Of a DNA stretch of 64,000 nucleotides, positions 11,308-25,386 are shown in pieces. Every line of letters begins with the position of its first letter. Within the stretch, counting starts at the first letter, position 1. Both the position numbers and the translations under genes were made by a program. Source of the DNA: Escherichia coli (lineage in GTDB: Bacteria > Pseudomonadota > Gammaproteobacteria > Enterobacterales > Enterobacteriaceae); assembly GCF_045037415.1 (NCBI RefSeq), contig NZ_CP173438.1; one strand, 5' to 3'. The notes beneath the pieces are model-generated. The model was not told the origin of the DNA. It made no database searches and saw only the letters and a list, made by a program, of their open reading frames with translations.

Positions 11308-11313
11308 TGATTT

Positions 11314-11336
11314 TGCCTCGCCCACCGGGCGAGGCA
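11314..11336. terminator. hairpin between convergent hemL and fhuB
   Basis: tgcctcgccc acc gggcgaggca 10-bp inverted repeat. Confidence 0.45.
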
Positions 11337-11341
11337 TCCTA

Positions 11342-13324
11342 TTAACGGCTCTGCTTTCTCAACAAATAGATAAAATATGGCGCGCCGATAAAGGTCGACA
11401 GCAGCCCCGCTGGGATCTGGAATGGAAACAATACCATCCGCCCACACCAGTCAGCGAACACCAGCAGTAATCCTCCCACCAGCGCCGAAATTACGATGTG
11501 TGGCATCGTCCGTCGAAAGCCCATCATCCGCGCAATATGCGGTGCCATTAAACCAACAAAACTCAACGGACCAATGGTCATTGTCGCGGTCGCCGTCAGG
11601 CAAGCCGCTAACAGCAGCAGCGCAATTCGCGTCGGCGTCAGCGCCATCCCCACGGCTCGTGCGGTATCACCACCCAGCGGTAAAATGGTCAGCCAGCGGC
11701 GGCACAGCGGGGTAATCGCCAGCAAAATCACCATCACAATTCCAGTACGCCAGACCTGCGCATCGGTCGCGTTGTAGGTCGAACCGGAAATCCAGGTCAG
11801 AACTTGCGCCATTCGCGGGTCACCACTTGCCTGCAACATCATCAAAAGCATGGTGAACGCGGTACTTAACGCCATCCCCGCCAGTAACATGCGGTGTGGG
11901 GAAAATCCACCGCGTCCGGCGGCGATCATAATGATCAACAGCGTCACCGCCGCCCCGAGACTGCCTGTGGGTAACAGCCAGCCAAAGGCATTACCCGGCA
12001 CCAGAAACAGCATTAACACCACGCCAAACGCCGCGCCGGAGCTAATCCCCAGCACTTCCGGGCTTGCCATCGGGTTTCCGGTCAGCCGCTGAATAATACA
12101 GCCCGCCACCGCCAGCATGACACCCGCAAACAGCGCCGCCATAATTCGCGGCCAGCGCCAGGGCATCAAATCCTCGAGCAACGCCCCGCTCGCCCACGTC
12201 CAGCCGTGCGCATCACGACCAAACGACAGCGCCACCACCACAGCCATCAACAGCAGCACGCCGCCCGCGAGAGCAAACGCCAGCACGTGTTGGCGTTCAG
12301 TCGCGACACGATCGTTGACCTTCATATCCGGCGCGCTAATGCTGCGTAAACGCGGCAGCAGCCACAGTAGCAGCGGCGCACCGATCAACGCAGTGACCGA
12401 ACCGGTAGACACTTCCATCCACACGCGAGTCAGCCAGAGGATGATTTGATCAGAAAGCCACAGAATTAACGCACCAATCAGCGATGCCAGCATCAACCGT
12501 GGCAACAAACGCCGCGCCCCCAGCATTTTCGCCAGCAGTGGCGCGAACAAACCGATAAAGCCGATAATCCCCACCGCGTTCACCAGCAGCGCACTGATGA
12601 CAATCGCCAGCGACAACGCCGCCAGACGAGCGAGCGACAAGGCCAGCCCGAGATTGCGCGCCACGCCATCATCAAGCCCCATCAGAGTTAACGGGCGAAG
12701 TAGCAATAACGTCAGCATCACGCCGCCCAGCAGCTGCGGCCATAAACGCTCAACGCCGCCCCAGTCGGTTTGCGTCAGCGTTCCGGTGCTCCACAGGAAC
12801 ATGCTTTGCAGTTGGTCATGATGGAAGATAACCAGTAACTGATTGATTGCGCCGCAATAAAGGCTCACTACCAGCCCCGCGAGGATCAGCGTTACCGGCG
12901 AAAGCCGTTTCCCCCACGCGACGCCAAAGACGATTAAGCCAACAACACAAGCCCCTGCCAGCGCAGCAAACTGGCTCGCCATCGCGCCGGGGATCGCCCA
13001 GAGCGTGGTGACGGTAATCCCCAGTTGCGCGCCTGTTGCAACACCCAACGTCGTCGGTTCCGCCAGCGGGTTACGCAGCACTTGCTGAAACAGCACGCCC
13101 ACCATCCCCAGGCCCGCGCCCACCAGCAGCGAAATCGCCAGACGCGGCAACAAGCTGTAGTGAAAAATCATCTGCTCGATGACGTCAATATCCGGCGACC
13201 AGGCGGCCTGCGCCCACTGGCTGCGCGGCAGCGCCTGCGAGAAGTTCATCCAGGTCAACGCCGCAGCAGCAACCACCAGCAGCGCCAGCAATAACACCGG
13301 AAAAAGCGCAATTCGTTTACTCAC
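11342..13324 (-). CDS. fhuB: ferrichrome ABC transporter permease FhuB (duplicated permease)
   Basis: 660-aa translation, two FecCD-like halves. Confidence 0.95.
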   Translation of the reverse strand: MSKRIALFPVLLLALLVVAAAALTWMNFSQALPRSQWAQAAWSPDIDVIEQMIFHYSLLPRLAISLLVGAGLGMVGVLFQQVLRNPLAEPTTLGVATGAQLGITVTTLWAIPGAMASQFAALAGACVVGLIVFGVAWGKRLSPVTLILAGLVVSLYCGAINQLLVIFHHDQLQSMFLWSTGTLTQTDWGGVERLWPQLLGGVMLTLLLLRPLTLMGLDDGVARNLGLALSLARLAALSLAIVISALLVNAVGIIGFIGLFAPLLAKMLGARRLLPRLMLASLIGALILWLSDQIILWLTRVWMEVSTGSVTALIGAPLLLWLLPRLRSISAPDMKVNDRVATERQHVLAFALAGGVLLLMAVVVALSFGRDAHGWTWASGALLEDLMPWRWPRIMAALFAGVMLAVAGCIIQRLTGNPMASPEVLGISSGAAFGVVLMLFLVPGNAFGWLLPTGSLGAAVTLLIIMIAAGRGGFSPHRMLLAGMALSTAFTMLLMMLQASGDPRMAQVLTWISGSTYNATDAQVWRTGIVMVILLAITPLCRRWLTILPLGGDTARAVGMALTPTRIALLLLAACLTATATMTIGPLSFVGLMAPHIARMMGFRRTMPHIVISALVGGLLLVFADWCGRMVLFPFQIPAGLLSTFIGAPYFIYLLRKQSR

Positions 13325-14211
13325 GCTTTACCTCCGATGGCGTTATCCAGAATACGCACAAAGTGCATTGCAGAAAGCGTCGCACCATAGAACCAAACTG
13401 CAGGTACGCGCTGAAAGCGTCCGGCGCGGACAAACGGCATGGCCTGCCACAGCGGGGTTGCCATTAGCGCATCCATGTCTTTGCTGTTGTCGTGATCAAA
13501 ACAGAGCACATCAACGTCTTTATACGCTGCCAGACGATCGATACTGACGGCGGTACTGCCCCAGAAGTTGGTTTCCCCTTGCCAGGCATTTGGGATGCCG
13601 TACTCATCGAGAATTTCCTGGAACAAGCTGTTTGGACCGAAGACCAACATATGGCGCGGATCGATAAGCGTCGTCAGCAATAACGGGCGTGCACCACGCT
13701 TCACAAAGCGGGGTTTCATGCTGCGGATAAAGTCTTCATAGTGCGCTAAATGCGTTTCCGCTGCGCTTTGCAGGTTAAGTAAATCTGCCATTTCCGTCAG
13801 TGATTTACGCGCCATCGCCAGTGGCTGTTTGCCGTCGCTGAAGTTAAATCCGCGCCCCGGCGCAATACGTGCCAGCATTTCTGGTGAAGGGCCATATCCT
13901 GCAGACCAGACCATAAACGACGGTTTCATTTCGGTCAGCAGTTCAAGGTTGGGTTCTGTACGCAAACCAACGTCAATCACTGAGTCCGGCAATGGCGGTT
14001 CGCTGACCCACAGGCGATAGTTGATGGTGTCCGCCACGCCGTAAGGCACGATGCCGAGCGCCAGCAGTAACTCCACCGGCAACCACTCCAGTGCCACAAT
14101 ACGATTGGGATCAATAACCGCCGCGTGGGCGGTATTCATCTGCCATAACAACGGAGAAAGCGCCATCGCCGTTAACAGTCGGCGGCGCGAAATAAGAGGT
14201 AAGCCGCTCAT
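13321..14211 (-). CDS. fhuD: ferrichrome periplasmic binding protein FhuD
   Basis: ORF 13321..14214; ATG at 14209-14211 gives the 296-aa MSGLPLISRRRLL (Tat-like) N-terminus; overlaps fhuB start and fhuC stop. Confidence 0.9.
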   Translation of the reverse strand: MSGLPLISRRRLLTAMALSPLLWQMNTAHAAVIDPNRIVALEWLPVELLLALGIVPYGVADTINYRLWVSEPPLPDSVIDVGLRTEPNLELLTEMKPSFMVWSAGYGPSPEMLARIAPGRGFNFSDGKQPLAMARKSLTEMADLLNLQSAAETHLAHYEDFIRSMKPRFVKRGARPLLLTTLIDPRHMLVFGPNSLFQEILDEYGIPNAWQGETNFWGSTAVSIDRLAAYKDVDVLCFDHDNSKDMDALMATPLWQAMPFVRAGRFQRVPAVWFYGATLSAMHFVRILDNAIGGKA

Positions 14212-15008
14212 CAATAAACAAAACTCACAGGTGCAGCACCCGCCGGATGCGGCAGAATACCCATCGGGATGCCATAAATCATTTCGAGGGTTTCGCCGCG
14301 CATAATTTCCGCAGGCGTTCCCTGAGCAATCATTTCACCGCCGCGTAGGGCGACCAGATAATCACAGTAGCGCGCCGCCATATTGATATCGTGCAGCACG
14401 GCAATGACCGTCAGGCCACGCTCCTGACTTAAACGATGCACCAGCGCCAGTACATCAACCTGGTGGGCGATATCCAGCGCCGAAGTCGGTTCGTCGAGCA
14501 ACAGACAGCGGCTATCCTGCGCCACCAGCATGGCGATCCACGCCCGCTGACGTTCGCCGCCAGAAAGGCTATCGACCAGCCGATGCGCCAGCGGTTTTAA
14601 GCCAACCAGCGAGATAGCTTCCTCGACCTTTTCGCGATCTGCAACACCAAAGCGCCCCAGCGCGCCATGCCACGGGTAACGACCAATCGCCACCAGTTCA
14701 CGCACGGTCATCCCTTCTGCCGGAGGAAGCTGCTGCGGCAAATAAGCCACTTTGCGGGCAAACGCTTTGCTGCTCCAGCTTTCCAGCGGTTGGGCATCAA
14801 TAAGAATCTCCCCTTCCGACGGTGGCTGGTGACGACCAAGCATTTTGAGCAGAGTGGATTTACCAGAACCGTTGTGACCAATCAGACCGGTCACTTTCCC
14901 GGCAGGAAAGGTTAACGACAGCGGATGCAAAAGCGTGCGCCCGGGCACACGAAAGGAGATATTACGCAGTGCAAAAGTGGTATCGGAATGATTCGTGTAT
15001 TCCTGCAT
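14211..15008 (-). CDS. fhuC: ferrichrome ABC transporter ATP-binding protein FhuC
   Basis: ORF 14211..15050; start moved to MQEYTNHSDTTFAL (265 aa); Walker A GHNGSGKST. Confidence 0.9.
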   Translation of the reverse strand: MQEYTNHSDTTFALRNISFRVPGRTLLHPLSLTFPAGKVTGLIGHNGSGKSTLLKMLGRHQPPSEGEILIDAQPLESWSSKAFARKVAYLPQQLPPAEGMTVRELVAIGRYPWHGALGRFGVADREKVEEAISLVGLKPLAHRLVDSLSGGERQRAWIAMLVAQDSRCLLLDEPTSALDIAHQVDVLALVHRLSQERGLTVIAVLHDINMAARYCDYLVALRGGEMIAQGTPAEIMRGETLEMIYGIPMGILPHPAGAAPVSFVY

Positions 15009-15059: not shown

Positions 15060-17309
15060 TTAGAAACGGAAGGTTGCGGTTGCAACGACCTGACGTTCTG
15101 CGCCCCAGAAGCAACCATAAGTGTTAAAGCAGCTGGCGACGTATTCACGATCGAACAGGTTGTTGACATGCAGCGCCACGTTGGAGCCCGCCATGCCGAC
15201 TCGCGCCAGATCATAACGCACTAACGCATCCACGACCGTATAACTTCCCACTTTAAAGGAGTTAGCCGGATCACCATAGCTGGAGCCAGTATAACGACCA
15301 CCGGTGCCCAGCGTCAGACCTGAAAGCGGACCGTCAAAGAAGGTATAGTCAGCCCACAGCGAAGCCATGTGTTTTGGCACCTGTGCAGGCGTATTTCCTT
15401 TGTAGTTGGTGTCAGTGGTGTATTCCGCGTCAGTATAGGTGTAAGAACCAACCAAGTTAACACTCGCCGACAGTGCCGCTTTCGCTTCCAGCTCTACGCC
15501 ACGCGCACGAATCTCACCGCCTTCAACCGAGAACAGTGAACCGTTCGGATCCGCCATCAGGTTATTAGTTTTGGTAAGCTGATACAGTGCGCCAGTCACC
15601 ACAATTGGGCGATCTTCTGGCACATATTTCACGCCGACTTCATACTGTTTGCCTTTCGAAGGTGCAAACAGATCGCCGTTCGCATCAGTCTGTGAAGCGG
15701 GTTCAAATGATTCACTGTAGCTGAAGTAAGGCGTTACGCCGTTGTCGAACAGGTAGTTTACACCACCACGCCAGGTGAACTCTTTGTCGTCACGTTCAGA
15801 TTTATTACCGTAATCACGGTTGAAAGATGACTGATCGGCCCAGTCATAGCGACCGCCAAGCGTAACCAGCACTTTATCCCACTGCGCCTGATCCTGAACA
15901 TACAGGCCGGTTTGTTTCTGTTTCAGCAGAACGCGGTATGGACCAGACGGATTCGGGTGAGCGCCAAAATCAAAGTCACTACGGTCTAAATTATAGATAT
16001 CAGATGGTGCAACTGAACCGGCATAACCAAACCAGGAATCGATGTCATTACGCATACGCATAAAGTCAACGCCAGTCAGCAGAGTGTGATCCACTGAACC
16101 GGTTGCGAATTTGCTTTGCAACTGAGTATCAACAGAGAAGTTTTCTAACTTCTCATTATCGATAACGTACTGACGAGTCAGTGTATGGCCCCATTGAGAC
16201 TGCGGCACGTTAGCACATGGACTCGAAGAGGGGTTTGAAGAATAGAGCGGGTCTGAGCACATGCCGTAGCCATATACGCTCTTTTGCGAGACTTTATTTT
16301 GTGCAAAGCGCAGGTTCTGACGCACAGTAAAGGTGTCGTTAAATTCGTGGTCGAAGCTATAACCAATCATCTTCTCGTTACGAGAATAGGTGTTGTTCTT
16401 CGCGCCTTCGTTAAAGTCGGTCGGCAGACGCTTACCGTTTGGCAGCGGTTCGACAGTCCCCTCTTTCGGCAACCAGCCGTAATAACCGGTTTCCGGCTCG
16501 TTCTGGAAGTAAGAAAGGAAAGTGAAATTGGTTTTATCATTCGGACGCCAGGTAAACGCTGGAGCAATAGCATAACGCTGCTCTTCAGCCCCCTTCTGCT
16601 GGGCATTCGCAGAACGCGCAAGGCCGGTCAGGCGATAAGAGTAAACGCCGTCATCATCCAGCGCATCGCTGAAGTCAAAACCAGTCTGGAATAGGCTGTC
16701 AGTCCCGGCCTTAAACTGAACTTCTTTCAACGGTTCAGTGGTCGGGCGCTTGCTGACCATGTTCAACAGGCCGCCTGGGCTGCTTTTCCCATACAGCACG
16801 GAAACCGGGCCACGCATGATTTCAGCGCGCTCCAGCATATATGGGTCAATAACCGCATCGTTATAGAAGTTGCCCTGCATCTTCAGGCCATTCAGATAGT
16901 TGTTCTGGCTTTGGCCGTCTGCCGCAAATCCGCGGATGATCAGGTAATCATAAGTATTAGATGCGCCACGGGTTCCCACAGCAACGCCAGGGGTATAGCT
17001 AAGCGCTTCTTTCACCGACTTAGGCTGATGCAGTGCCATCTCTTCAGCGGTGACGACAGAAATAGATTGAGGTACTTTTTGAATCGGCGTATCAGTTTTA
17101 GTGCCGGTAGCGGACTGTCGCGCCGCAATAGTTGCAGCTGGCCCCCATGCGCTTTCTTGCGGCGCAGGTGCAGCGGTAACGGTGATAGTGTCTTCTTTCG
17201 GTTCAACCGCTGCCTGTGCATAAACAGACATGCCGCTAACCGCTGTGGCTACTACAACTGCGATTTTACGCAGTGAGTGTTTTGGCTGAGCAGTTTTGGA
17301 ACGCGCCAT
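15060..17309 (-). CDS. fhuA: TonB-dependent ferrichrome outer membrane receptor FhuA (phage T1/T5/phi80 and colicin M receptor)
   Basis: 749-aa translation with signal peptide, TonB box (DTITVTA), terminal ...ATATFRF beta-barrel motif. Confidence 0.95.
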   Translation of the reverse strand: MARSKTAQPKHSLRKIAVVVATAVSGMSVYAQAAVEPKEDTITVTAAPAPQESAWGPAATIAARQSATGTKTDTPIQKVPQSISVVTAEEMALHQPKSVKEALSYTPGVAVGTRGASNTYDYLIIRGFAADGQSQNNYLNGLKMQGNFYNDAVIDPYMLERAEIMRGPVSVLYGKSSPGGLLNMVSKRPTTEPLKEVQFKAGTDSLFQTGFDFSDALDDDGVYSYRLTGLARSANAQQKGAEEQRYAIAPAFTWRPNDKTNFTFLSYFQNEPETGYYGWLPKEGTVEPLPNGKRLPTDFNEGAKNNTYSRNEKMIGYSFDHEFNDTFTVRQNLRFAQNKVSQKSVYGYGMCSDPLYSSNPSSSPCANVPQSQWGHTLTRQYVIDNEKLENFSVDTQLQSKFATGSVDHTLLTGVDFMRMRNDIDSWFGYAGSVAPSDIYNLDRSDFDFGAHPNPSGPYRVLLKQKQTGLYVQDQAQWDKVLVTLGGRYDWADQSSFNRDYGNKSERDDKEFTWRGGVNYLFDNGVTPYFSYSESFEPASQTDANGDLFAPSKGKQYEVGVKYVPEDRPIVVTGALYQLTKTNNLMADPNGSLFSVEGGEIRARGVELEAKAALSASVNLVGSYTYTDAEYTTDTNYKGNTPAQVPKHMASLWADYTFFDGPLSGLTLGTGGRYTGSSYGDPANSFKVGSYTVVDALVRYDLARVGMAGSNVALHVNNLFDREYVASCFNTYGCFWGAERQVVATATFRF

Positions 17310-17528: not shown

Positions 17529-18539
17529 TTATCGGTAATACACTTCGAAGGTGGCAACAGAATTAACCCGACCACTTTTGACGCTACCCATTTTGATGTA
17601 GCGTGCTTTTAACGGAATAGTAACATTTTGATTTAACGTCGTTTTTTGAACAGGTGTATAGTCTGTATCAAATACCATCACATTGTTATTACTATCGAGG
17701 ATCTGCAGACCAACTCCTTCCGCCATTCCTGAACCAGACTCAATATTAAGAATATTATTACCCGTTACTCCAGTAGAACCTGATGAAGTAAAGCGGTAAT
17801 CAACTTTTACATCCTGAGAACATTTTTCAATCTGAATTTTAAACCGATCATCGGAAACTACAGGTGACACATTGTTAACATCAAAATCATCTGTGCCAAT
17901 ATCATTGAGTGGAACGGTAATATTTTTTTCTATAAGGTCGCATGTGCCCGGTTGAATATTGACCGGAACAGAACTAAAACGAAGCTCTCCAATAACACGA
18001 TTGTCATACTTCCAGTCAGCAACCAGTTTGCTGGTATCAATGGTCCCATTACCGACAGGTCCTGTGACAATAAACTGAATAGCTGCATGTATTGTAATCG
18101 GATAACCATATCCTTTAATCACTGTTGACGAGCCTTTATGCCAGGGCGTCATTAAATATCCGGCGGTGAGTTGCGCACTGGTGTTATTCGCCCACGCCGC
18201 GCGAAAACCGATTCCTGGCACATTAGTCTGAAACACATTGTTAAGTGGGTTATCAGTACGCATATCACCGTTTGTCAATACGGTATATCCTTGCCAGATC
18301 TCACCATTTGCCGTACAGGAAACTGAAATTGACGGACTGTTCGCATTTACTGTCGCAATAATCGTTCCAGGAACGGCATCGCTATTAACAACCAACGCAG
18401 GCACGGAGAATTGTACTGTTGCCGGATTTCCTCCATTTCCAGAAATGTTACAACCGGCGAAAACCTCAGGAATGACGCCCCAGCTAAGAAATATTATGGT
18501 CAATAATGTTCGTATATAAGAGACGAATCCTGGCTTCAT
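17529..18539 (-). CDS. fimbrial adhesin-like protein (two-domain tip subunit), last gene of accessory chaperone-usher operon
   Basis: 336-aa translation with signal peptide and pilin-type C-terminus ...ATFEVYYR; longer than a structural pilin, consistent with lectin + pilin domains. Confidence 0.75.
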   Translation of the reverse strand: MKPGFVSYIRTLLTIIFLSWGVIPEVFAGCNISGNGGNPATVQFSVPALVVNSDAVPGTIIATVNANSPSISVSCTANGEIWQGYTVLTNGDMRTDNPLNNVFQTNVPGIGFRAAWANNTSAQLTAGYLMTPWHKGSSTVIKGYGYPITIHAAIQFIVTGPVGNGTIDTSKLVADWKYDNRVIGELRFSSVPVNIQPGTCDLIEKNITVPLNDIGTDDFDVNNVSPVVSDDRFKIQIEKCSQDVKVDYRFTSSGSTGVTGNNILNIESGSGMAEGVGLQILDSNNNVMVFDTDYTPVQKTTLNQNVTIPLKARYIKMGSVKSGRVNSVATFEVYYR

Positions 18540-18560
18540 TATTTTTTCCTGTCTTATTTG

Positions 18561-21038
18561 TTATCGGCAATCCATTGTGGCTTTATAGATACCCGTGGTG
18601 TATTTTTCTGGCACTGTGACAACTCCTGTACATTGCTGGTTAATCTCTTTTCCCCACTGTACCGTAAATGTCATTGATTCTTGCACACCAGTAATATAAA
18701 CCTCCCCATCTTCACCAACAATCGCTGTACTATTCCCTAATGTCAGCAATGCCCCAAAGGGTACGCGTTCTTTATTATGGACTAATGTCAACAAGGCTCG
18801 TATTCCGCTACGTGCATCAAAATCGACACCAACAACAGCCCCTTTCGAAGGAATAACATCTTGTGTGGCATCAGAAATATCAAGACTATCGTGCCCCTGT
18901 GTATTCACAGTAATAGCGTTATGTCGATAATTCGTCATATTGGGAACAATCGCGTTTCCCCAATAATCAGTATAAACGCCTTGCGCATTTTGTACTTTTA
19001 CATTGGCACCCTCATTAATATGCACGATCGCGAATGAATCCTGCACTGATTGCCCCAATGTTACTCCATGAGCATGAGCAACCACCGCACCTTGCGCACT
19101 GTAATTCCACTGACGACTATTTTTATCATAGCTATATCCCAGACCGAATTCCCCCACTGAGCTACGATAACGTCCATTCATGCTGGCATCATAACCCACA
19201 TTATTATCAGTATAACTTTGCTGTAAATTATAACTCAGGTTGTTATCTTGCAGAGCAGTACCGCCAATTCCCAATTGATGTGATGTATTACTTTTATCGG
19301 AACGGTTTACGTTATACATCGCCCATGAATCTGGCAGCCAGCGAGAGAGAGGAATATTGAGTGTTAATGAAAATTGCTGCTCACCAGCCATTCCTGGCGT
19401 TTTCGTTAGTGTGTAATTAACAGACCAATTAATGTTACTCCAGGTCGTACTGTATCCCATTCCTATACTGCGTTCGGCCCCATGCATTCCCCAATAATCC
19501 TGTTGATAACCGTTAAGGTAGACCGAGCCCCAACGACCAATATTTTGTGAAAGATTAATTTGTAAACGATTACGCCGATTATTTGTCTGTCGATAACTGT
19601 AAATACCCTTGTCATCAGGTGTATCACGTTGATCAAGTGCTTCCTGGAAAGTGTAAAATTGTGATGTAGAATAACGATAACTTGCCAGAGTTACTGTCGT
19701 ATCAGTGTCTGGAAAATCTTTCGCATACTGTGCACGCCATGACAGTCCTGTAGCATCATCACGCCCATCATCAAACTTCGTTTCTGCTGCGGTGATATCA
19801 ACAGATACCGACCCCAGACGGCCTAAATCAGCGCCAATCCCTGTCACACCAGAATGATAAATTGAGGCACCAAGTATGCCGCCATAAATCGTTATTCCAT
19901 AGGGCAAGCCATATATCGCGGTTGCAACACCAAAAACAGGTGTCTCAGCATGATTATCGTTGTCACGGTATTTTCCAGTTGCAAGACTATATTTTAATGC
20001 GCCTTCTCGCTGTAGAATTGGAACCGTTGAACTGGCCTGAATAAAACTGTGTTCTTGCCCGTTGGTTTCTTTGATGGTGACTTCCAGATCGGCCCCCGCC
20101 GTTACCTGGCTTAAGTCTTTAATTTCAAATGGCCCTGCCGATACCCACGTTTGGTAAATAACATAGCCGTTTTGTTTAATCACAACTTGTGCATCGCTGT
20201 TGGCAATACCACGAACCACTGGCGCAAAGCCTTGTTCGCTGTCAGGCAGCATACTGGTGTCCGTTTCAAGCTTTATACCTGTCATCTGCACACTGTCAAA
20301 AAGATCGCCATTTGTGAACGTCTGCCCGACTTCCATCTGGCTTCTTAATGCTTTGATATCGCGTTGCAAACTGGTGCTGATCGACTCCCAACTGGAGTCA
20401 CTGTAAACGGTATTATTTCGTAGCCGCCATACGCCTAAATTAATCCCTGAATTTAAATTCAACCAATTTGAATTCAGGTTATCGCCATCACTGTTTTGCC
20501 GGGAACCACTGGCGTAATAACTTAACCAAACCGCACTCTCACCATCACTCCAGTATTTCGGTGAAATACTCCCTGCGGCCCGCGCATTCTGATAGATTTG
20601 CGGGATCCGCAGACACAGCGTTTGGCTGTCTAACTGGAAATCATAACGTGCGCCATCAATAATCTGAGCAATATCACCAAACTCAGTGTCATCATCCATT
20701 ACTTGTAACGCGGGAATGTCGTCAACTTTAAGACCGAACTCACGGAGATCCGCCTTTGTAAAACGAGGGATGAGCCTTTTTTTATCCGAAGACAGAATGA
20801 AGGTAATATTTCTCTTATCAAGATACTCTTGCCCCCACATAACAGAGGTAAGATATACTCCCGGAGTTAAGTTATTATTATTAACAAAATCCTCCAGCAC
20901 TTGTGTATTTTCAAGTGGGCTATCCAGCTCCAGGATACGAAGGTTAAATTCATCTCGTGCATAGCTCAATGAATACACTGCCGATAATGCAAATGTTATC
21001 CCAGTTAAGACAAATGTGCGATGCAATGGTAGCAGCAT
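18561..21038 (-). CDS. fimbrial outer membrane usher protein
   Basis: 825-aa translation with usher features (N-terminal signal, plug and barrel segments, C-terminal Cys pair). Confidence 0.85.
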   Translation of the reverse strand: MLLPLHRTFVLTGITFALSAVYSLSYARDEFNLRILELDSPLENTQVLEDFVNNNNLTPGVYLTSVMWGQEYLDKRNITFILSSDKKRLIPRFTKADLREFGLKVDDIPALQVMDDDTEFGDIAQIIDGARYDFQLDSQTLCLRIPQIYQNARAAGSISPKYWSDGESAVWLSYYASGSRQNSDGDNLNSNWLNLNSGINLGVWRLRNNTVYSDSSWESISTSLQRDIKALRSQMEVGQTFTNGDLFDSVQMTGIKLETDTSMLPDSEQGFAPVVRGIANSDAQVVIKQNGYVIYQTWVSAGPFEIKDLSQVTAGADLEVTIKETNGQEHSFIQASSTVPILQREGALKYSLATGKYRDNDNHAETPVFGVATAIYGLPYGITIYGGILGASIYHSGVTGIGADLGRLGSVSVDITAAETKFDDGRDDATGLSWRAQYAKDFPDTDTTVTLASYRYSTSQFYTFQEALDQRDTPDDKGIYSYRQTNNRRNRLQINLSQNIGRWGSVYLNGYQQDYWGMHGAERSIGMGYSTTWSNINWSVNYTLTKTPGMAGEQQFSLTLNIPLSRWLPDSWAMYNVNRSDKSNTSHQLGIGGTALQDNNLSYNLQQSYTDNNVGYDASMNGRYRSSVGEFGLGYSYDKNSRQWNYSAQGAVVAHAHGVTLGQSVQDSFAIVHINEGANVKVQNAQGVYTDYWGNAIVPNMTNYRHNAITVNTQGHDSLDISDATQDVIPSKGAVVGVDFDARSGIRALLTLVHNKERVPFGALLTLGNSTAIVGEDGEVYITGVQESMTFTVQWGKEINQQCTGVVTVPEKYTTGIYKATMDCR

Positions 21039-21104
21039 AAATTCCCTTGCGCCCGTAATATTATAAATACAGATCGGTTATTTATAGTAATACACTTCGG
21101 TGAT

Positions 21105-21821
21105 TTATAACTTTTGTTGTCGTTTCCCAGAACTTGAACCGTAGTCAGTTATCACCGACCATTCAACAATACTTCCCGCTCCGACAGGAAGACTAAACCG
21201 CTGCTCAGAAAATGGTCCTACCATCATCAATAATGCGCCAGGTTCAGATTTGCTCTCGGTGGGAACAATATTTTTTCCCGATACTGTCAGATCACTGAAT
21301 GAAATATAAAAAGGCGTTGGATTTTTTACTATGAGCTTCCCCGCTTCTTTATGGAACTTAAGTTTTTCCCATGCAGTGAGAGCATCACTATTATCCAAAG
21401 AAGCTGGCCGCCAAAATAATTTAAGCCGGGCTTTCATTGCAAATTGCAAGGTATTTCTATCTTTTAGTTCTTCTGGCATCGCAGAAACAGATTTTATGTT
21501 TGCCAGAAACAAACTTTCCCTATCCTGAGGAAGTTTGTTTTTATCACCTGTAAATACAATATGGAGTAATGTTTGCCGATTTTCTTCAAGTTTATAAACT
21601 GGAGGCGTAATGAGAAAGGGGGCTTTAGAGCCATCAATATTACTCACCCAGCTTTGCACCAAATAGCGTGCATATGCATCTTTATTTTTTAATGTGATTT
21701 GAACTTCATTTTGATTTGAAGGATAGATAATACGTGTACCGCCAAGAACAATACTTGCCTGAACTTGCAATGCCGTAAGAAGAAACGTAAAACCTAAACA
21801 AACTCGAGAAAAAACTGACAT
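21105..21821 (-). CDS. periplasmic fimbrial chaperone (PapD-like)
   Basis: ORF 21105..21854; start placed at ATG 21821 (MSVFSRVCLGF... signal peptide), preceded by ggaggg 8 nt upstream. Confidence 0.8.
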   Translation of the reverse strand: MSVFSRVCLGFTFLLTALQVQASIVLGGTRIIYPSNQNEVQITLKNKDAYARYLVQSWVSNIDGSKAPFLITPPVYKLEENRQTLLHIVFTGDKNKLPQDRESLFLANIKSVSAMPEELKDRNTLQFAMKARLKLFWRPASLDNSDALTAWEKLKFHKEAGKLIVKNPTPFYISFSDLTVSGKNIVPTESKSEPGALLMMVGPFSEQRFSLPVGAGSIVEWSVITDYGSSSGKRQQKL

Positions 21822-21866
21822 AAATAACCCTCCGTGGTCAAACAGTCCTTTCAAACACTATGAATA

Positions 21867-22433
21867 TTAGCGATAAAATACTTCGAACGTCGCAGATGAG
21901 GCATACTTACCCGCAGTCGGCGCGTTATTACCAACCTGAATAACATTGGCGGTGTAATTGAATATTGTTGGAGTAATGCTCCCGGCATTATCAACATCAG
22001 TGGATGCATCGGGAACTGAACCATCAAATTTCACATCGTTAGCACCGCCATTTTTATTTGTCACCGTAATACCCACATTTGTTGCACTGCCAGCCCCAGC
22101 TTCGCTATTTTCCAGACGCAGGAAACCTGCATCCGTTGTCGTTCCAGAAAATGTCAGGTTTAGTTTGTCCACCAACGGATCGCATTTTATTAATTCAATT
22201 TTAAAATCTTTTGACGTTCCAATACTACCGTCTCCAGAATAGTCCGCTGGGTAAGTATCTGCAAAAGTGACTGTCCCTGTTGTACTGGCAGACTCGTTTA
22301 CATTAATTTCGCAAGTATCGGCAACAATTTTACCGTTAAAGTTAACCACTCCGGTATCTGTAGCAAATACACTGGTACTTACTACAGCGATGAGACTTCC
22401 TGACACTAACAGAGAAAGCAATTTTTTATTCAT
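21867..22433 (-). CDS. major fimbrial subunit (type 1 pilin-like), first gene of accessory operon
   Basis: 188-aa translation, signal peptide, Cys pair, C-terminal ...SSATFEVFYR donor-strand motif. Confidence 0.85.
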   Translation of the reverse strand: MNKKLLSLLVSGSLIAVVSTSVFATDTGVVNFNGKIVADTCEINVNESASTTGTVTFADTYPADYSGDGSIGTSKDFKIELIKCDPLVDKLNLTFSGTTTDAGFLRLENSEAGAGSATNVGITVTNKNGGANDVKFDGSVPDASTDVDNAGSITPTIFNYTANVIQVGNNAPTAGKYASSATFEVFYR

Positions 22434-22767: not shown

Positions 22768-25293
22768 TTAATTACTACCAAACATCTCCTTGATCCAGCC
22801 AGCCACGCCGTCGCTGTCTTTTTGCTCCTGTTGAGCAGGTTGCTGTTGCTGCGGCTGAGAAGACTGATCAAACGGATTGCCTGACGGTTGCTGCTGCATC
22901 TCACTCTGCTGGCACAGCGATTGCGGATCGCTGGTCCAGACTGGCAAGACACGCATACCACCGCTGCAAACAAAGTTGCCGTCGTAGTCCACGCCCATAT
23001 CTGCAATATCTTCCGGCGGAACAAGATTCAGCGGTGTTGGCGTCTGGTTAGCCAGATAACGCTGATAAATCGACATTGCCCCGCTGGCACCATACAGTTT
23101 GGTCGGCTGGTTGTTATCACGGCCGACCCAGGTGATGGTCACCGTGCTCCCATCAATGCCCGCAAACCAGGTATCTACGTTATTGTTGGTAGTCCCTGTT
23201 TTCCCTGCCAGATGCAGGTTCGGGTATTTTGCCCCAAGCTGACGTCCCGTACCGCGTTGTACAACCTGCTGCATGGTCCATAGTGTCAGATACGCCGCCT
23301 GCGCCGGAACAGCGCGTTCTGCCTGCGGGAAGCTCTGATACAACACCTTGCCGTCTTCTGCGATGACTGAACGTAGCGCGGAAAGCGGAGCACGATTACC
23401 ACCGCTGGCGATAGTCTGGAAGGCCTGCGCCACTTCGATTGGCGTTAAGTTCAACGCCCCCAACAACATTGCTGGAACTGGATTCAGTTGATCTTTCGGC
23501 ACACCCAGTTTGATCCAGGTATCCGTAACCGCAGGCAGCCCCAACGCCATGCCCAGATTCACCGTTGGCACGTTCATCGAACGGGTCAACGCATCTACCA
23601 GCATCACCCTGCCACTTTCGCTATAACGACGATCATCGTTCTGCGGTGACCAGACCTGGCCATTCGGCTGACGCAGCGCGATTGGCGCATCGGCAATCCA
23701 CGTATTCAAACGATAGATTTTCGGCTGGCTTAAGGCCGTTAGATAAGTCGCTGGTTTTGCAAGGGAACCAATCGAACGACGCGCCTGCATCGCACGGTTG
23801 TAGCCCGCAAACTGCGGCTCAGAGCCACCGACCATCGCACGAACTTCACCGCTAAAGCGGTCAACAACCACAATCGCGGTTTCAAGATCGCTCAACTTAC
23901 GCTGTTTCTTCAGTGCCGGAATGCCTTCCACGGCGGCTTTTTCTGCCGCGTCCTGGGCCACCGAGTCAAAGGTAGTGAAGATCTTCACGCCGGAGAGATC
24001 TTTTACCTTATCGCCTAATTTCGCCTGCAGCTCCTGACGCACCAGCTGCATAAAGGCTGGCTGAGGAGAGATCACCCCACCGCGCGGCTGAACACCCAGC
24101 GGACGTGCACTCAACATGTCATAGAGTTCTTGATCAATAATTTGTTGCTGTTGCAGCAAACGTAGTACCAGGTTACGTCGCTCCAGCGCCAGTTTCGGGT
24201 TACGCCACGGGTTGTAGATGGACGCCCCTTTCACCATACCCACCAACAGCGCCTGCTGATCGAGGCTCAATTCTTCTACCGGGCGACCAAAGTAATACAA
24301 GCTCGCCAGCGGGAAGCCGCGGATTTCGTTGTCGCCGCTCTGACCGAGATACACCTCGTTCATATACAGCTCAAGAATACGGTCTTTGCTGTAACGCGCG
24401 TCCATGATCAGCGCCATGTAGGCTTCGTTCGCTTTACGCCAGTAAGAACGCTCGCTGGAGAGAAACAGGTTTTTAACCAACTGTTGCGTCAGCGTACTCG
24501 CCCCCTGCACCGTGCGTCCGGCAGTCAGGTTTGCCAGCACCGCACGTCCGATTGAGTAGAGACTGATCCCATCATGCTCGTAGAAATGACGGTCTTCTGT
24601 CGCCAGCAAAGTATCCACCAGCAAATCCGGGAAACCACTGCGCGGCACAAACAGACGCTGCTCACCGTTTGGCGAAGAGATCATGGTGATCAGGCGCGGA
24701 TCAAGACGGAAGAAACCGAACTGACGGTTGTTCTCCATATTGACTATCGTCGCCAGATGATCGCCATCAAAGGTCAGACGCGCGCGCACCTGCCCTTCTT
24801 TGCTGTCCGGGAAATCAAACGGACGGCGGATCATCTCAATGCTGTTGGCCTGTACGGTAAACTCACCAGGACGGGTCATTTTCGACACCTGGCGATACTG
24901 GGTCGCCTCCAGCAGCTTCACCATCTCGTTCTTGCTGATGGTCATGTCTGGCTCAAGGTTGACCATTCGACCATAAACTGCCGCGGGCAATTGCCAGACC
25001 TTGCCATCAATACGGCTGCGAATTTTTTGATCGAGATAAACGCCGTAAATGGCGATCAGCACGGCAAAAACGATAGCCAGTTTTAGCAGCAGCCATAGCC
25101 AGCCGCGTTTGCCACGAGGCTTACGCCCTTTGCCTTTGCCCTTACCTTTGCGCGGCATCGGTTCTTCATCCTCATAGTCATCATAATCGTCGTAATCATC
25201 GTCATCTTCGTAACGACGACGGCTTACCTTTTGTTTGACCGGACGCGTCGGTTTCCCTTTGCGTCCAATTGGCTCGCGGTCATTCCCGGCCAT
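22768..25293 (-). CDS. mrcB: penicillin-binding protein 1B (bifunctional glycosyltransferase/transpeptidase)
   Basis: ORF 22768..25308; start moved to [13 protein letters not shown]; acidic [15 protein letters not shown] tract and Gln-rich C-terminus. Confidence 0.9.
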
Positions 25294-25386
25294 GCTTTTT
25301 CTCCGCAATATTCAGGCGCAAAAGCCCGATTTTCTGTTCTTCTGTTGCAAGACAGAAGAAGATATCTCTCAAATTTGCTTTGGTCT

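Follow-up and report, generated by a model that had tools for sequence, protein, structure and literature searches.

The fhuA gene in the 64,000-nt stretch of Escherichia coli DNA that we analysed (hereafter the window) is a mosaic that arose by intragenic homologous recombination. The best explanation, to which we assign a probability of roughly three in four, is that it belongs to an old and divergent allele class, E2, in which recombination has produced a mosaic and balancing selection has kept the loop sets. According to this explanation, the two ends of the gene (codons 1–77 and 641–749) would be ordinary E. coli DNA, and the block between them, codons 78–640, would encode an alternative, internally conserved loop set consisting of L4–L7 with small changes in L8 and L9. 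Homologous recombination would move such loop cassettes between backgrounds, and the sets most likely persist through balancing, frequency-dependent selection by FhuA-dependent phages and colicin M. The import by recombination of an old and strongly diverged gene segment, and not recent mutation, would then account for the loop differences from K-12. The gene and the remainder of its operon lie as follows.

15060..17309, minus strand: fhuA coding sequence, 749 codons and a stop (open reading frame, PDB, NCBIfam and SK1144 DNA match)
11342..15008, minus strand: fhuC, fhuD and fhuB, which complete the fhuACDB operon and show normal E. coli divergence (SK1144 annotation)
14211..15008, minus strand: fhuC (annotation of the identical SK1144 locus)
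13321..14211, minus strand: fhuD (annotation of the identical SK1144 locus)
11342..13324, minus strand: fhuB (annotation of the identical SK1144 locus)

The fhuA product is predicted to be an intact ferrichrome outer-membrane transporter. The listed open reading frame has no internal stops, residues 34–749 match the solved E. coli FhuA structures in a PDB chain search (1465 bits), and the FhuA equivalog model NCBIfam NF007465 scores 1450.4 bits against its cut-off of 803. A TonB box and plug are followed by a 22-strand barrel, as seen in the alignment and in an AlphaFold model, which is the domain arrangement of FhuA. At the DNA level, the whole gene is 100% identical to fhuA as annotated in E. 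coli SK1144, whose protein, WP_000124398.1 (ferrichrome porin FhuA), is the same allele. The order fhuA-fhuC-fhuD-fhuB, evident from the open reading frames and the SK1144 annotation, is the expected genomic context, and sliding identity to K-12 is mostly 94–100% across fhuC, fhuD and fhuB.

An earlier note on this DNA had described a 749-residue FhuA that is mostly identical to the K-12 protein, with its substitutions grouped in blocks. Alignment with FhuA of K-12/MC4100 bore this out, 671 of the 750 aligned columns being identical (89.5%); it also showed that the K-12 sequence given in the note is right, that the protein contains each of the four peptide blocks quoted there, and that residues 350–385 had been rightly placed at nt 16155..16262 for a minus-strand gene. 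The 79 differing positions comprise 75 substitutions, a three-residue insertion (LYS) in L4 and a one-residue deletion in L5. They range from mature K-12 residue 77 to residue 600; mature residues 1–76, including the TonB box DTITV, and 601–714 are the same in both proteins. For the barrel topology we used the AlphaFold model, built from a 52-sequence alignment, assuming 10-residue membrane segments beside each periplasmic turn. The model has 22 strands and a TM-score of 0.74–0.84 to solved FhuA; its mean pLDDT of 61 (about 70–89 in the barrel, with the cork not modelled) gives loop boundaries of medium confidence, which fit the published EL7 (Glu501–Ser516) and EL8 (Thr546–Glu564).

With this topology, 64 of the differences are extracellular; the cork holds 4, a periplasmic turn 1, and the membrane strand segments the remaining 10, for the most part V/I/L exchanges (Fisher odds ratio for extracellular enrichment 8.4, p = 5e-16). 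The clustering in loops is real and far beyond chance, yet the differences are not strictly confined to loops. The earlier reading, which placed them mainly in surface loops, L4 included, is supported. The segments concerned are the following.

17178..17192, minus strand: TonB box DTITV, mature residues 7–11 (precursor 40–44), identical to K-12
16131..16301, minus strand: extracellular part of L4 (hairpin 4, the 'gating loop'), residues 337–393; 25 of 57 positions differ
15909..16064, minus strand: extracellular part of L5 (hairpin 5), residues 416–467; 20 of 53 positions differ, with the one-residue deletion
15783..15842, minus strand: L6, residues 490–509; 8 of 20 positions differ
15654..15707, minus strand: L7, residues 535–552; 7 of 18 positions differ, D509N (mature K-12 numbering) among them
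15504..15575, minus strand: L8, residues 579–602; 2 of 24 positions differ (E554N and F557L)

L4 carries the LYS insertion and Y325S, and keeps both cysteines of its disulfide, between which it is three residues longer than in K-12. L2 and L9 differ at single positions (1/15 and 1/20, respectively), and L1, L3, L10 and L11 at none. The window protein has the same fold and falls in the same length class as K-12 FhuA (UniProt P06971; PDB 1BY3, 2FCP and 8A8C), and the two are alike in the cork apices, in L1, L3, L10 and L11 and in the fhuACDB operon. The TonB box and the barrel strands had both been called conserved in the earlier reading; the box is identical, and the strands are conserved at the protein level only.

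The allele class, the location of its differences in loops and its recombinational origin are already known from published work, and annotations of the allele exist for hundreds of genomes. Wang, Chen, Zhu, White and Koster 2018 (bioRxiv 10.1101/320069; Infect Immun 86:e00573-18) divided FhuA into clusters E1–E4, with K-12 in E1 and with E2 set apart from E1/S1 by an L4 insertion (Indel 3), and placed the variable regions at the apexes of L4, L5, L6 and L7. Chen X et al. 2022 (bioRxiv 10.1101/2021.09.21.461324; PMC12175518) described the 'mosaic evolution' of outer-membrane protein genes. In these two studies the cork and TonB box are conserved, the clusters are common to several genera, and recombination is local. 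The window protein shows the E2 indel pattern, that is, the LYS insertion in L4 and a full-length L5 (Indel 4), and has neither the L3/L10 insertions of E4 nor the L4/L5 truncations or L6/L7 extensions of E3. It therefore appears to correspond to E2, a label assigned from the published description, and nothing essential differs between that cluster and the window allele. All four E. coli classes were recovered among the six alleles that we compared: E2 is represented by the window, Nissle and SCAID alleles, E3 by that of CT265, in which L4/L5 are short and L6/L7 long, and E4 by that of 23CRST031, which has insertions in L3 and L10. What our analysis would add to the published work is that the E1/E2 split is as deep as those between genera and that the sample shows no recent donor from another genus; apart from this refinement, the allele, which is common and borne by the ST131 clone, brings no new biology.

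The mosaic structure of the gene is summarized below.

17079..17309, minus strand: 5′ end, codons 1–77, a 'native' E. coli segment with 99–100% nucleotide identity to K-12
15390..17078, minus strand: divergent block, codons 78–640, about 1.7 kb, which defines the E2-type allele (maximum chi-square breakpoints)
15390..16256, minus strand: most divergent sub-block, codons 352–640, which holds L4–L9; synonymous sites saturated relative to K-12
15060..15389, minus strand: 3′ end, codons 641–749 and the stop, including L10 and L11; protein equal to that of K-12, DNA about 98% identical

Synonymous differences from K-12 change in density at codons 78 and 640 (maximum chi-square 55.3 versus a permutation maximum of 24.0, n = 100), and an inner breakpoint lies near codon 352 (chi-square 15.8 versus a 99th percentile of 13.3). 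Where a codon specifies the same amino acid in both genes, it differs in 34% of cases within codons 78–640 and in 6% outside them. Sliding nucleotide identity to K-12 is 57–95% in the divergent block and 96–99% in the 3′ end, where the proportion of synonymous differences (pS) is 0.09 and that of nonsynonymous differences (pN) is 0. Codons 1–63 have a pS of 0.02, and four of the six compared alleles, which span all four classes, share the same first 63 residues. The segments of a related allele, that of Nissle 1917, differ in their nearest relative: it equals the window allele at codons 390–602 (99–100% nucleotide identity), is K-12-like at codons 123–271 and 603–652, and has an L4 tip of its own. 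The picture drawn earlier, of an otherwise identical gene with added loop substitutions, is not supported, as codons 78–640 have diverged at synonymous sites too. Co-transfer of the neighbouring fimbrial island with the divergent fhuA block was also considered and rejected; about 230 nt of K-12-identical fhuA 5′ sequence separates them.

We used fhuC as a baseline for the age of the block. Its pS is 0.08 between the window and K-12, 0.04–0.13 within E. coli, 0.17–0.22 to other Escherichia species and 0.50–0.69 to other genera. The pS of the window fhuA relative to K-12 is 0.37 for codons 64–330 and 0.62 for codons 331–640 (pN 0.138 in the latter), and divergence at fhuA is six- to eight-fold above that of the flanking gene. 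In other Escherichia species, same-type alleles have a central pS of 0.30 (E1V33) and 0.27 (E. whittamii). These values suggest that the lineage of the central block and that of K-12 parted no later than the enterobacterial genera did.

The depth of this divergence bears on the proposal that diversifying selection acted in situ, with phages or colicins favouring point mutations in the loops of an otherwise unchanged E. coli gene. The concentration of substitutions in loops is what such selection would produce; Chen 2006 and Petersen 2007 reported positive selection on fhuA in E. coli, as related in the papers that cite them, and the mosaic-evolution literature claims a measure of positive selection inside loop types. 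We nevertheless consider an origin of this kind very unlikely, since the synonymous divergence is at the between-genus level (pS 0.62 against the baseline of 0.08), the synonymous-site breakpoints are sharp, the same loop set is present in many other genera, and dN/dS does not exceed 0.37. A point-mutational origin of the E1/E2 difference is largely refuted by the synonymous sites of codons 78–640, which are not K-12-like. Pairwise Nei-Gojobori dN/dS between the window and K-12 alleles, calculated in 30-codon windows, was never above 1, and its maximum, 0.37, was in L4. The loop tips have a pN of 0.37–0.39 with saturated pS; dN/dS is uninformative for the loops because of this saturation. With no value above 1, the window/K-12 pair does not demonstrate positive selection. 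Selection by phages and colicins on the FhuA loops, the reading offered by the earlier note, is the accepted explanation in the literature, but dN/dS below 1, the divergent DNA block and the occurrence of the same loops in other genera stand against its diversifying form.

Comparisons within a loop type point to constraint. For the window and Nissle alleles, both in the E2 group, pN/pS is 0.28 over the extracellular parts of L4–L7 and approximately 0.39 for L4 alone. Between the window and Citrobacter sedlakii, L4 has 8.2 nonsynonymous differences over 134.7 sites and 30.8 synonymous differences over 36.3 sites, and within one loop type the L4 pN is about 0.05–0.06 and the pS about 0.8. Each loop type is thus under purifying selection.

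Outside E. coli, we sampled one genome per species. L4 and L5 of the window type were found in Citrobacter, Enterobacter vonholyi, a Leclercia MAG, Silvania, Lelliottia, Kosakonia, Phytobacter ursingii, Atlantibacter, Buttiauxella warmboldiae and Klebsiella indica. K-12-type loops were found in E. whittamii, S. enterica arizonae, Enterobacter asburiae, Citrobacter sp. NCU1, Leclercia adecarboxylata, Phytobacter massiliensis and Buttiauxella massiliensis. Citrobacter, Enterobacter, Leclercia, Phytobacter, Buttiauxella and Lelliottia each contain both types, as does Escherichia, and the L4 and L5 types change together from genus to genus. The window L4 is 95% identical to those of Citrobacter sedlakii and Enterobacter vonholyi, versus 43–46% to that of K-12.

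This distribution could reflect a recent horizontal import, in which the central block came from another enterobacterial genus, for example Citrobacter, into a resident fhuA. The window protein is up to 92.5% identical to Citrobacter FhuA, versus 89.5% to that of K-12, and is closer to it in the loops; the conserved gene ends would supply homology for recombination, and Wang et al. 2018 argued for inter-genus exchange after speciation, inferring recent exchange from short branches in protein trees. At the DNA level, however, we found no recent donor among the one-per-species genomes: the best identity of the centre to other genera is approximately 80%, with a pS of 0.61–0.76, no lower than the between-genus baseline of fhuC. 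The E2 type is also present in Escherichia sp. E1V33, at the pS of 0.30 given above. Among species representatives, the 24 pairs with the lowest pS, which include all those with a pS up to 0.45, are within-genus, and the lowest between-genus value is 0.46. A recent Citrobacter donor was rejected on these grounds for the genomes sampled, and recent import in general seems improbable to us. FhuA of C. sedlakii, C. amalonaticus and E. vonholyi resembles the window protein closely (L4 92–95%, L5 83–86%, overall 90–92.5% identical), but the central DNA of these genes is only about 78–80% identical, their synonymous sites are saturated and their signal peptides differ. They are orthologues with the same loop type and not donors.

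The types show a trans-species pattern, the central pS of 0.62 between E1 and E2 within E. coli going together with types that are common to several genera. A wider proposition, which we regard as an even call, is that the K-12-type and window-type loop sets, each with L4–L7 linked, are discrete receptor 'morphs' that are older than the enterobacterial genera and have been kept together in many of them by frequency-dependent selection, with each set under purifying selection, and that they did not result from recent inter-genus exchange as proposed in the literature. If this is true, ST131-type FhuA would be refractory to K-12-adapted T1, T5, phi80 and colicin M, and a distinct phage guild specific for the window-type loops would exist across Citrobacter, Enterobacter and E. 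coli.

Balancing selection could be dispensed with if the loops were weakly constrained and fast-evolving and the deep allele split reflected chance deep coalescence. Such a neutral history is compatible with a dN/dS below 1 throughout, and the functional difference between the alleles is only predicted. We give it an outside chance at best: loops of one type change little from genus to genus even though their synonymous sites are saturated, which marks them as constrained; discrete types, two and in fact four, are found side by side in E. coli and in several other genera; and a divergence six- to eight-fold above the flanking gene is seen inside one recombining species.

We then compared the residues related to transport. 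The TonB box lies at its established position in FhuA. Ten residues that presumably contact ferrichrome, a list that goes back in part to the Ferguson 1998 and Locher 1998 structures, are unchanged (R81, G99, Q100, Y116, Y244, W246, Y313, Y315, F391 and F693), and both disulfides, C318/C329 and C692/C698, are kept. Published work confirms Y244 and W246 as contact residues. Since the cork, the TonB box, the ferrichrome pocket and L3, L10 and L11 are kept, TonB-dependent ferrichrome uptake should work as in K-12. The earlier statement that ferrichrome uptake has been retained is thus upheld as regards the contact residues, the TonB box and the disulfides; for transport itself it is a prediction from sequence.

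The same residues weigh on the idea that the loop sets tune the uptake of different hydroxamate siderophores or antibiotics instead of serving evasion of phages and colicins. Purifying selection within each loop type does imply a specific role for the loops, and L5 and L8 have been reported to contribute to ferrichrome binding or uptake. Substrate specialisation is highly improbable, however, given that all of the checked pocket residues are unchanged, that L3 and L11, whose deletion is reported to abolish growth on ferrichrome, are also unchanged, and that the variable positions coincide with the loops of the phage pb5 interface.

Many phages, colicin M, microcin J25 and albomycin use FhuA as their receptor. 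The T5 protein pb5 contacts EL4–EL11, with EL4, EL5 and EL8 sharing most of the hydrogen bonds; in the cryo-EM complex with FhuA, the 334–339 peptide lies outside the pb5 interface, and among loop deletions only that of EL8 strongly affects T5. The designation of L4 as the T5 contact site, repeated in the earlier note, is therefore dated. Relative to K-12, Y325S, D509N, E554N and F557L of the window protein sit at residues implicated in T5 or Llp effects. Two of these substituted residues, Y325 and F557, are known to shift when T5 binds. Interface differences are reportedly tolerated in T5 binding. A search of the literature on natural FhuA variants for functional tests found none on the E2 type. 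We infer that phages and colicins adapted to K-12 loops should recognise the window allele differently or not at all, and that this allele should be a receptor for another set of phages. Because FhuA is a receptor for phages, bacteriocins and albomycin, the loop set matters for phage therapy and for bacteriocin or sideromycin targeting, especially for the ST131 clone, which bears exactly this allele.

Finally, we surveyed 5,424 complete E. coli genomes for the window fhuA. It was at least 99% identical in 566 of them; 314 fell at 95–99%, 286 at 90–95%, 3,695 at 80–90%, the band that holds the K-12-type alleles, and 563 at 60–80%. The exact protein, WP_000124398.1, is present on at least 1,000 contigs, including those of genomes labelled O25b:H4-ST131.

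The window carries an open reading frame whose product is an intact FhuA.

15060..17309, minus strand: fhuA, 749 codons (ORF call)

Its DNA showed no difference from the fhuA annotated in E. coli SK1144 (protein WP_000124398.1; 100% identity), and the encoded protein exceeded the cut-off of the NCBIfam FhuA equivalog (1450 versus 803 bits) and aligned with solved structures of E. coli FhuA from residue 34 to 749 (1465 bits). The window ORFs for fhuC, fhuD and fhuB come after fhuA on the same strand.

As a reference for the protein alignment, we used the K-12 (MC4100) fhuA locus. The two proteins were identical in 671 of 750 columns, the differences being 75 substitutions, a three-residue insertion (LYS) in L4 and a one-residue deletion in L5, all within mature K-12 residues 77-600. 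The K-12 sequence that the earlier note had used, and all the blocks it quoted, proved correct in this alignment, as did its nucleotide range for L4. Topology was taken from an AlphaFold model with 52 FhuA sequences as input, which had 22 strands, a barrel pLDDT of ~70-89 and no cork, and a TM-score of 0.74-0.84 to solved FhuA. Loop boundaries were set by assuming that 10 residues on each side of every periplasmic turn are membrane-embedded; the resulting L7 and L8 boundaries matched the published EL7 (Glu501-Ser516) and EL8 (Thr546-Glu564). In this model-based topology, 64 of the 79 differences were extracellular (odds ratio 8.4, p = 5e-16), in agreement with the surface-loop clustering that the note had proposed. 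The remainder fell in membrane segments (10, mostly V/I/L exchanges), the cork (4) and a periplasmic turn (1).

Positions of FhuA differing from K-12, by extracellular loop
L4: 25 of 57
L5: 20 of 53
L6: 8 of 20
L7: 7 of 18
L8: 2 of 24
L9: 1 of 20
L2: 1 of 15
L1, L3, L10, L11: 0

The TonB box, which the note had called conserved, was identical to that of K-12, as were the ten ferrichrome-pocket residues and both disulfides. L3 and L11, deletion of either of which abolishes growth on ferrichrome, were invariant between the two proteins. Window FhuA is intact, its energy-coupling and ligand-binding core is unchanged, and it is predicted to work as a transporter.

At the nucleotide level, fhuA was 86% identical to K-12 and its flanks 96-98%. 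Sliding windows revealed a mosaic, with identities of about 99% in the first ~200 nt, about 90-92% as far as nt ~950, 57-88% between nt ~1000 and ~1900 and about 98% in the last ~330 nt.

Nei-Gojobori estimates, window fhuA versus K-12
Codons 1-63: pS 0.02, pN 0
Codons 64-330: pS 0.37, pN 0.013
Codons 331-640: pS 0.62, pN 0.138
Codons 641-749: pS 0.09, pN 0

The adjoining fhuC served as a baseline: its pS came to 0.04-0.13 for comparisons inside E. coli, 0.17-0.22 against other Escherichia species and 0.50-0.69 against other genera. A max-chi-square test limited to codons with an unchanged amino acid placed breakpoints at codons 78 and 640 (difference rate 0.34 inside, 0.06 outside; chi2 55.3 versus a highest value of 24.0 among 100 permutations), with a third, inner breakpoint near codon 352. 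These results show that the window fhuA is a recombination mosaic with a divergence of between-genus depth.

The earlier note had suggested diversifying selection by phages or colicins as the source of the loop differences. In the dN/dS sense this found no support, as the ratio never exceeded 1 and surpassed 0.37 in no 30-codon window of the comparison with K-12; in the loop tips, pN was 0.37-0.39 and pS was saturated. The strong mid-gene synonymous divergence, together with the low dN/dS, indicates that the mid-gene strands are kept by purifying selection on old, divergent sequence, and rules out recent loop mutations as the origin of the allele (pS 0.62 in codons 331-640, dN/dS <=0.37). Thus, the barrel strands are conserved in the protein, as the note had stated, but their mid-gene DNA is old and divergent (pS 0.37 and 0.62). 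The loop clustering and a likely phage or colicin pressure stand, whereas diversification in situ gives way to old allelic divergence and recombination.

A cross-species scan with one genome per species found 66 fhuA loci. The window-type L4 (GMCSDPLYSSNP..SPCA.VPQSQWGHTLTRQYVID), which travels with a partner L5, occurred in several Citrobacter species, Enterobacter vonholyi, a Leclercia MAG, Silvania, Lelliottia, Kosakonia, Phytobacter ursingii, Atlantibacter, Buttiauxella warmboldiae and Klebsiella indica. K-12-type L4/L5 occurred in E. whittamii, S. enterica arizonae, Enterobacter asburiae, Citrobacter sp. NCU1, Leclercia adecarboxylata, Phytobacter massiliensis, Buttiauxella massiliensis and others, so that in this sample both types were present in at least six genera besides Escherichia. 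Inside one type the loops were strongly conserved although synonymous sites were saturated; for L4 of the window and C. sedlakii, 8.2 of 134.7 nonsynonymous and 30.8 of 36.3 synonymous sites differed. Window FhuA bears a conserved surface-loop set that is an alternative to that of K-12.

A recent import of the allele does not fit these data. Among the one genome per species, no other-genus locus exceeded 80% DNA identity to the allele centre (pS 0.61-0.76), and same-type alleles elsewhere in Escherichia stood at species-level pS (E1V33, 0.30; E. whittamii, 0.27). The 24 lowest-pS pairs of the sample, comprising all with pS up to 0.45, each joined members of one genus, the between-genus minimum being 0.46. 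The species-level values and the lack of a close other-genus match fit old classes with vertical descent and local reshuffling.

The finding itself is already known. Wang et al. 2018 (bioRxiv 10.1101/320069) described clusters E1-E4, with K-12 in E1 and an L4 insertion marking E2, variable regions located at loop apexes (L3-L7 and L10), a conserved cork and TonB box, and clusters common to Salmonella and other genera, with recombination as the preferred cause; the window fhuA presents the same picture. Later papers extended the pattern to outer-membrane protein genes as 'mosaic evolution' (Chen X et al. 2022, bioRxiv 10.1101/2021.09.21.461324; PMC12175518), and, as cited there, earlier genome scans named fhuA as positively selected. 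Our additions are only the synonymous-site depth and that no recent inter-genus donor was seen among one genome per species. Because of these two, we lean towards an old trans-genus polymorphism over the recent exchange that Wang et al. proposed on the basis of protein trees.

Balancing selection by agents that dock on the loops would keep both loop sets. The T5 protein pb5 touches EL4-EL11, with EL4, EL5 and EL8 taking most hydrogen bonds; T5 binding shifts Y325 (L4) and F557 (L8), and EL7/EL8 movement blocks T5, phi80 and colicin M. The older claim of an L4 peptide, 334-339, as the T5 site is unsupported by the complex structure, and the same paper reports that binding tolerates some interface changes. 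In window FhuA, Y325 is S, F557 is L, and D509 (L7) and E554 (L8) are both N. Altered phage or colicin sensitivity is therefore plausible but unproven.

Among the genomes representing species, apparent disruptions of fhuA were seen in Escherichia sp. MOD1-EC7003 (stop after codon 593), Intestinirhabdus alba (stop after codon 117) and E. coli E69 (match to FhuA residues 1-277 only). Possibly sequencing errors, they are consistent with FhuA loss as a second escape route from FhuA-dependent agents.

Representative E. coli alleles fell into four classes, matching those of Wang et al.

E1: K-12
E2: window, Nissle 1917 and SCAID alleles, with differing L4 tips
E3: CT265, with short L4/L5 and long L6/L7
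E4: 23CRST031, with insertions in L3 and L10

Residues 1-63 were identical in four of six alleles compared, all four classes being represented; the exceptions were R3P in Nissle and one K-12 column shifted by alignment. The Nissle fhuA is also mosaic: it matches the window allele over codons 390-602, resembles K-12 over codons 123-271 and 603-652, and has an L4 of its own. At the E2 L4 tip, Nissle (codons ~355-370), SCAID and Escherichia sp. E1V33 have an extra three-residue insertion (…TKDQEALKASPC…) similar to the tips of Kosakonia sp. S29 (…PTEPDALKTHPC…) and Enterobacteriaceae UBA3516 (…TKDAASLEKSPC…), so that loop-tip variants, too, look common to several genera.

Among 5,424 complete E. 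coli genomes with a match to the window allele, identity was >=99% in 566, 95-99% in 314, 90-95% in 286, 80-90% in 3,695 (the band including K-12-type alleles) and 60-80% in 563. The exact allele is common and tied to one clone; proteins near-identical to it carry the label O25b:H4-ST131. Between mrcB and fhuA lies a four-gene chaperone-usher fimbrial operon (17529..22433, minus strand).

22768..25308: mrcB
21867..22433, minus strand: fimbrial major subunit
21105..21854, minus strand: fimbrial chaperone
18561..21038, minus strand: fimbrial usher, LpfC-like, below the family cut-off
17529..18539, minus strand: tip or adhesin-like subunit, 336 aa

The operon was absent from this site in K-12, Nissle, SCAID, CT265 and 23CRST031. 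It was found in 574 of 5,426 complete E. coli genomes, with >=99% identity in 566. The exact fhuA allele has an equal count, and both therefore appear to mark one clone. On the other side of fhuA, two fhuB stretches (~13216..13365 and ~12391..12615, minus strand) were 90-93% identical to K-12, the rest of fhuCDB being 94-99%, and may be small recombination tracts. The fhuB-hemL intergenic region (~11309..11341) is without about 115 bases found in K-12 (13963..14112 of its locus, L001), which may be a repetitive extragenic element.
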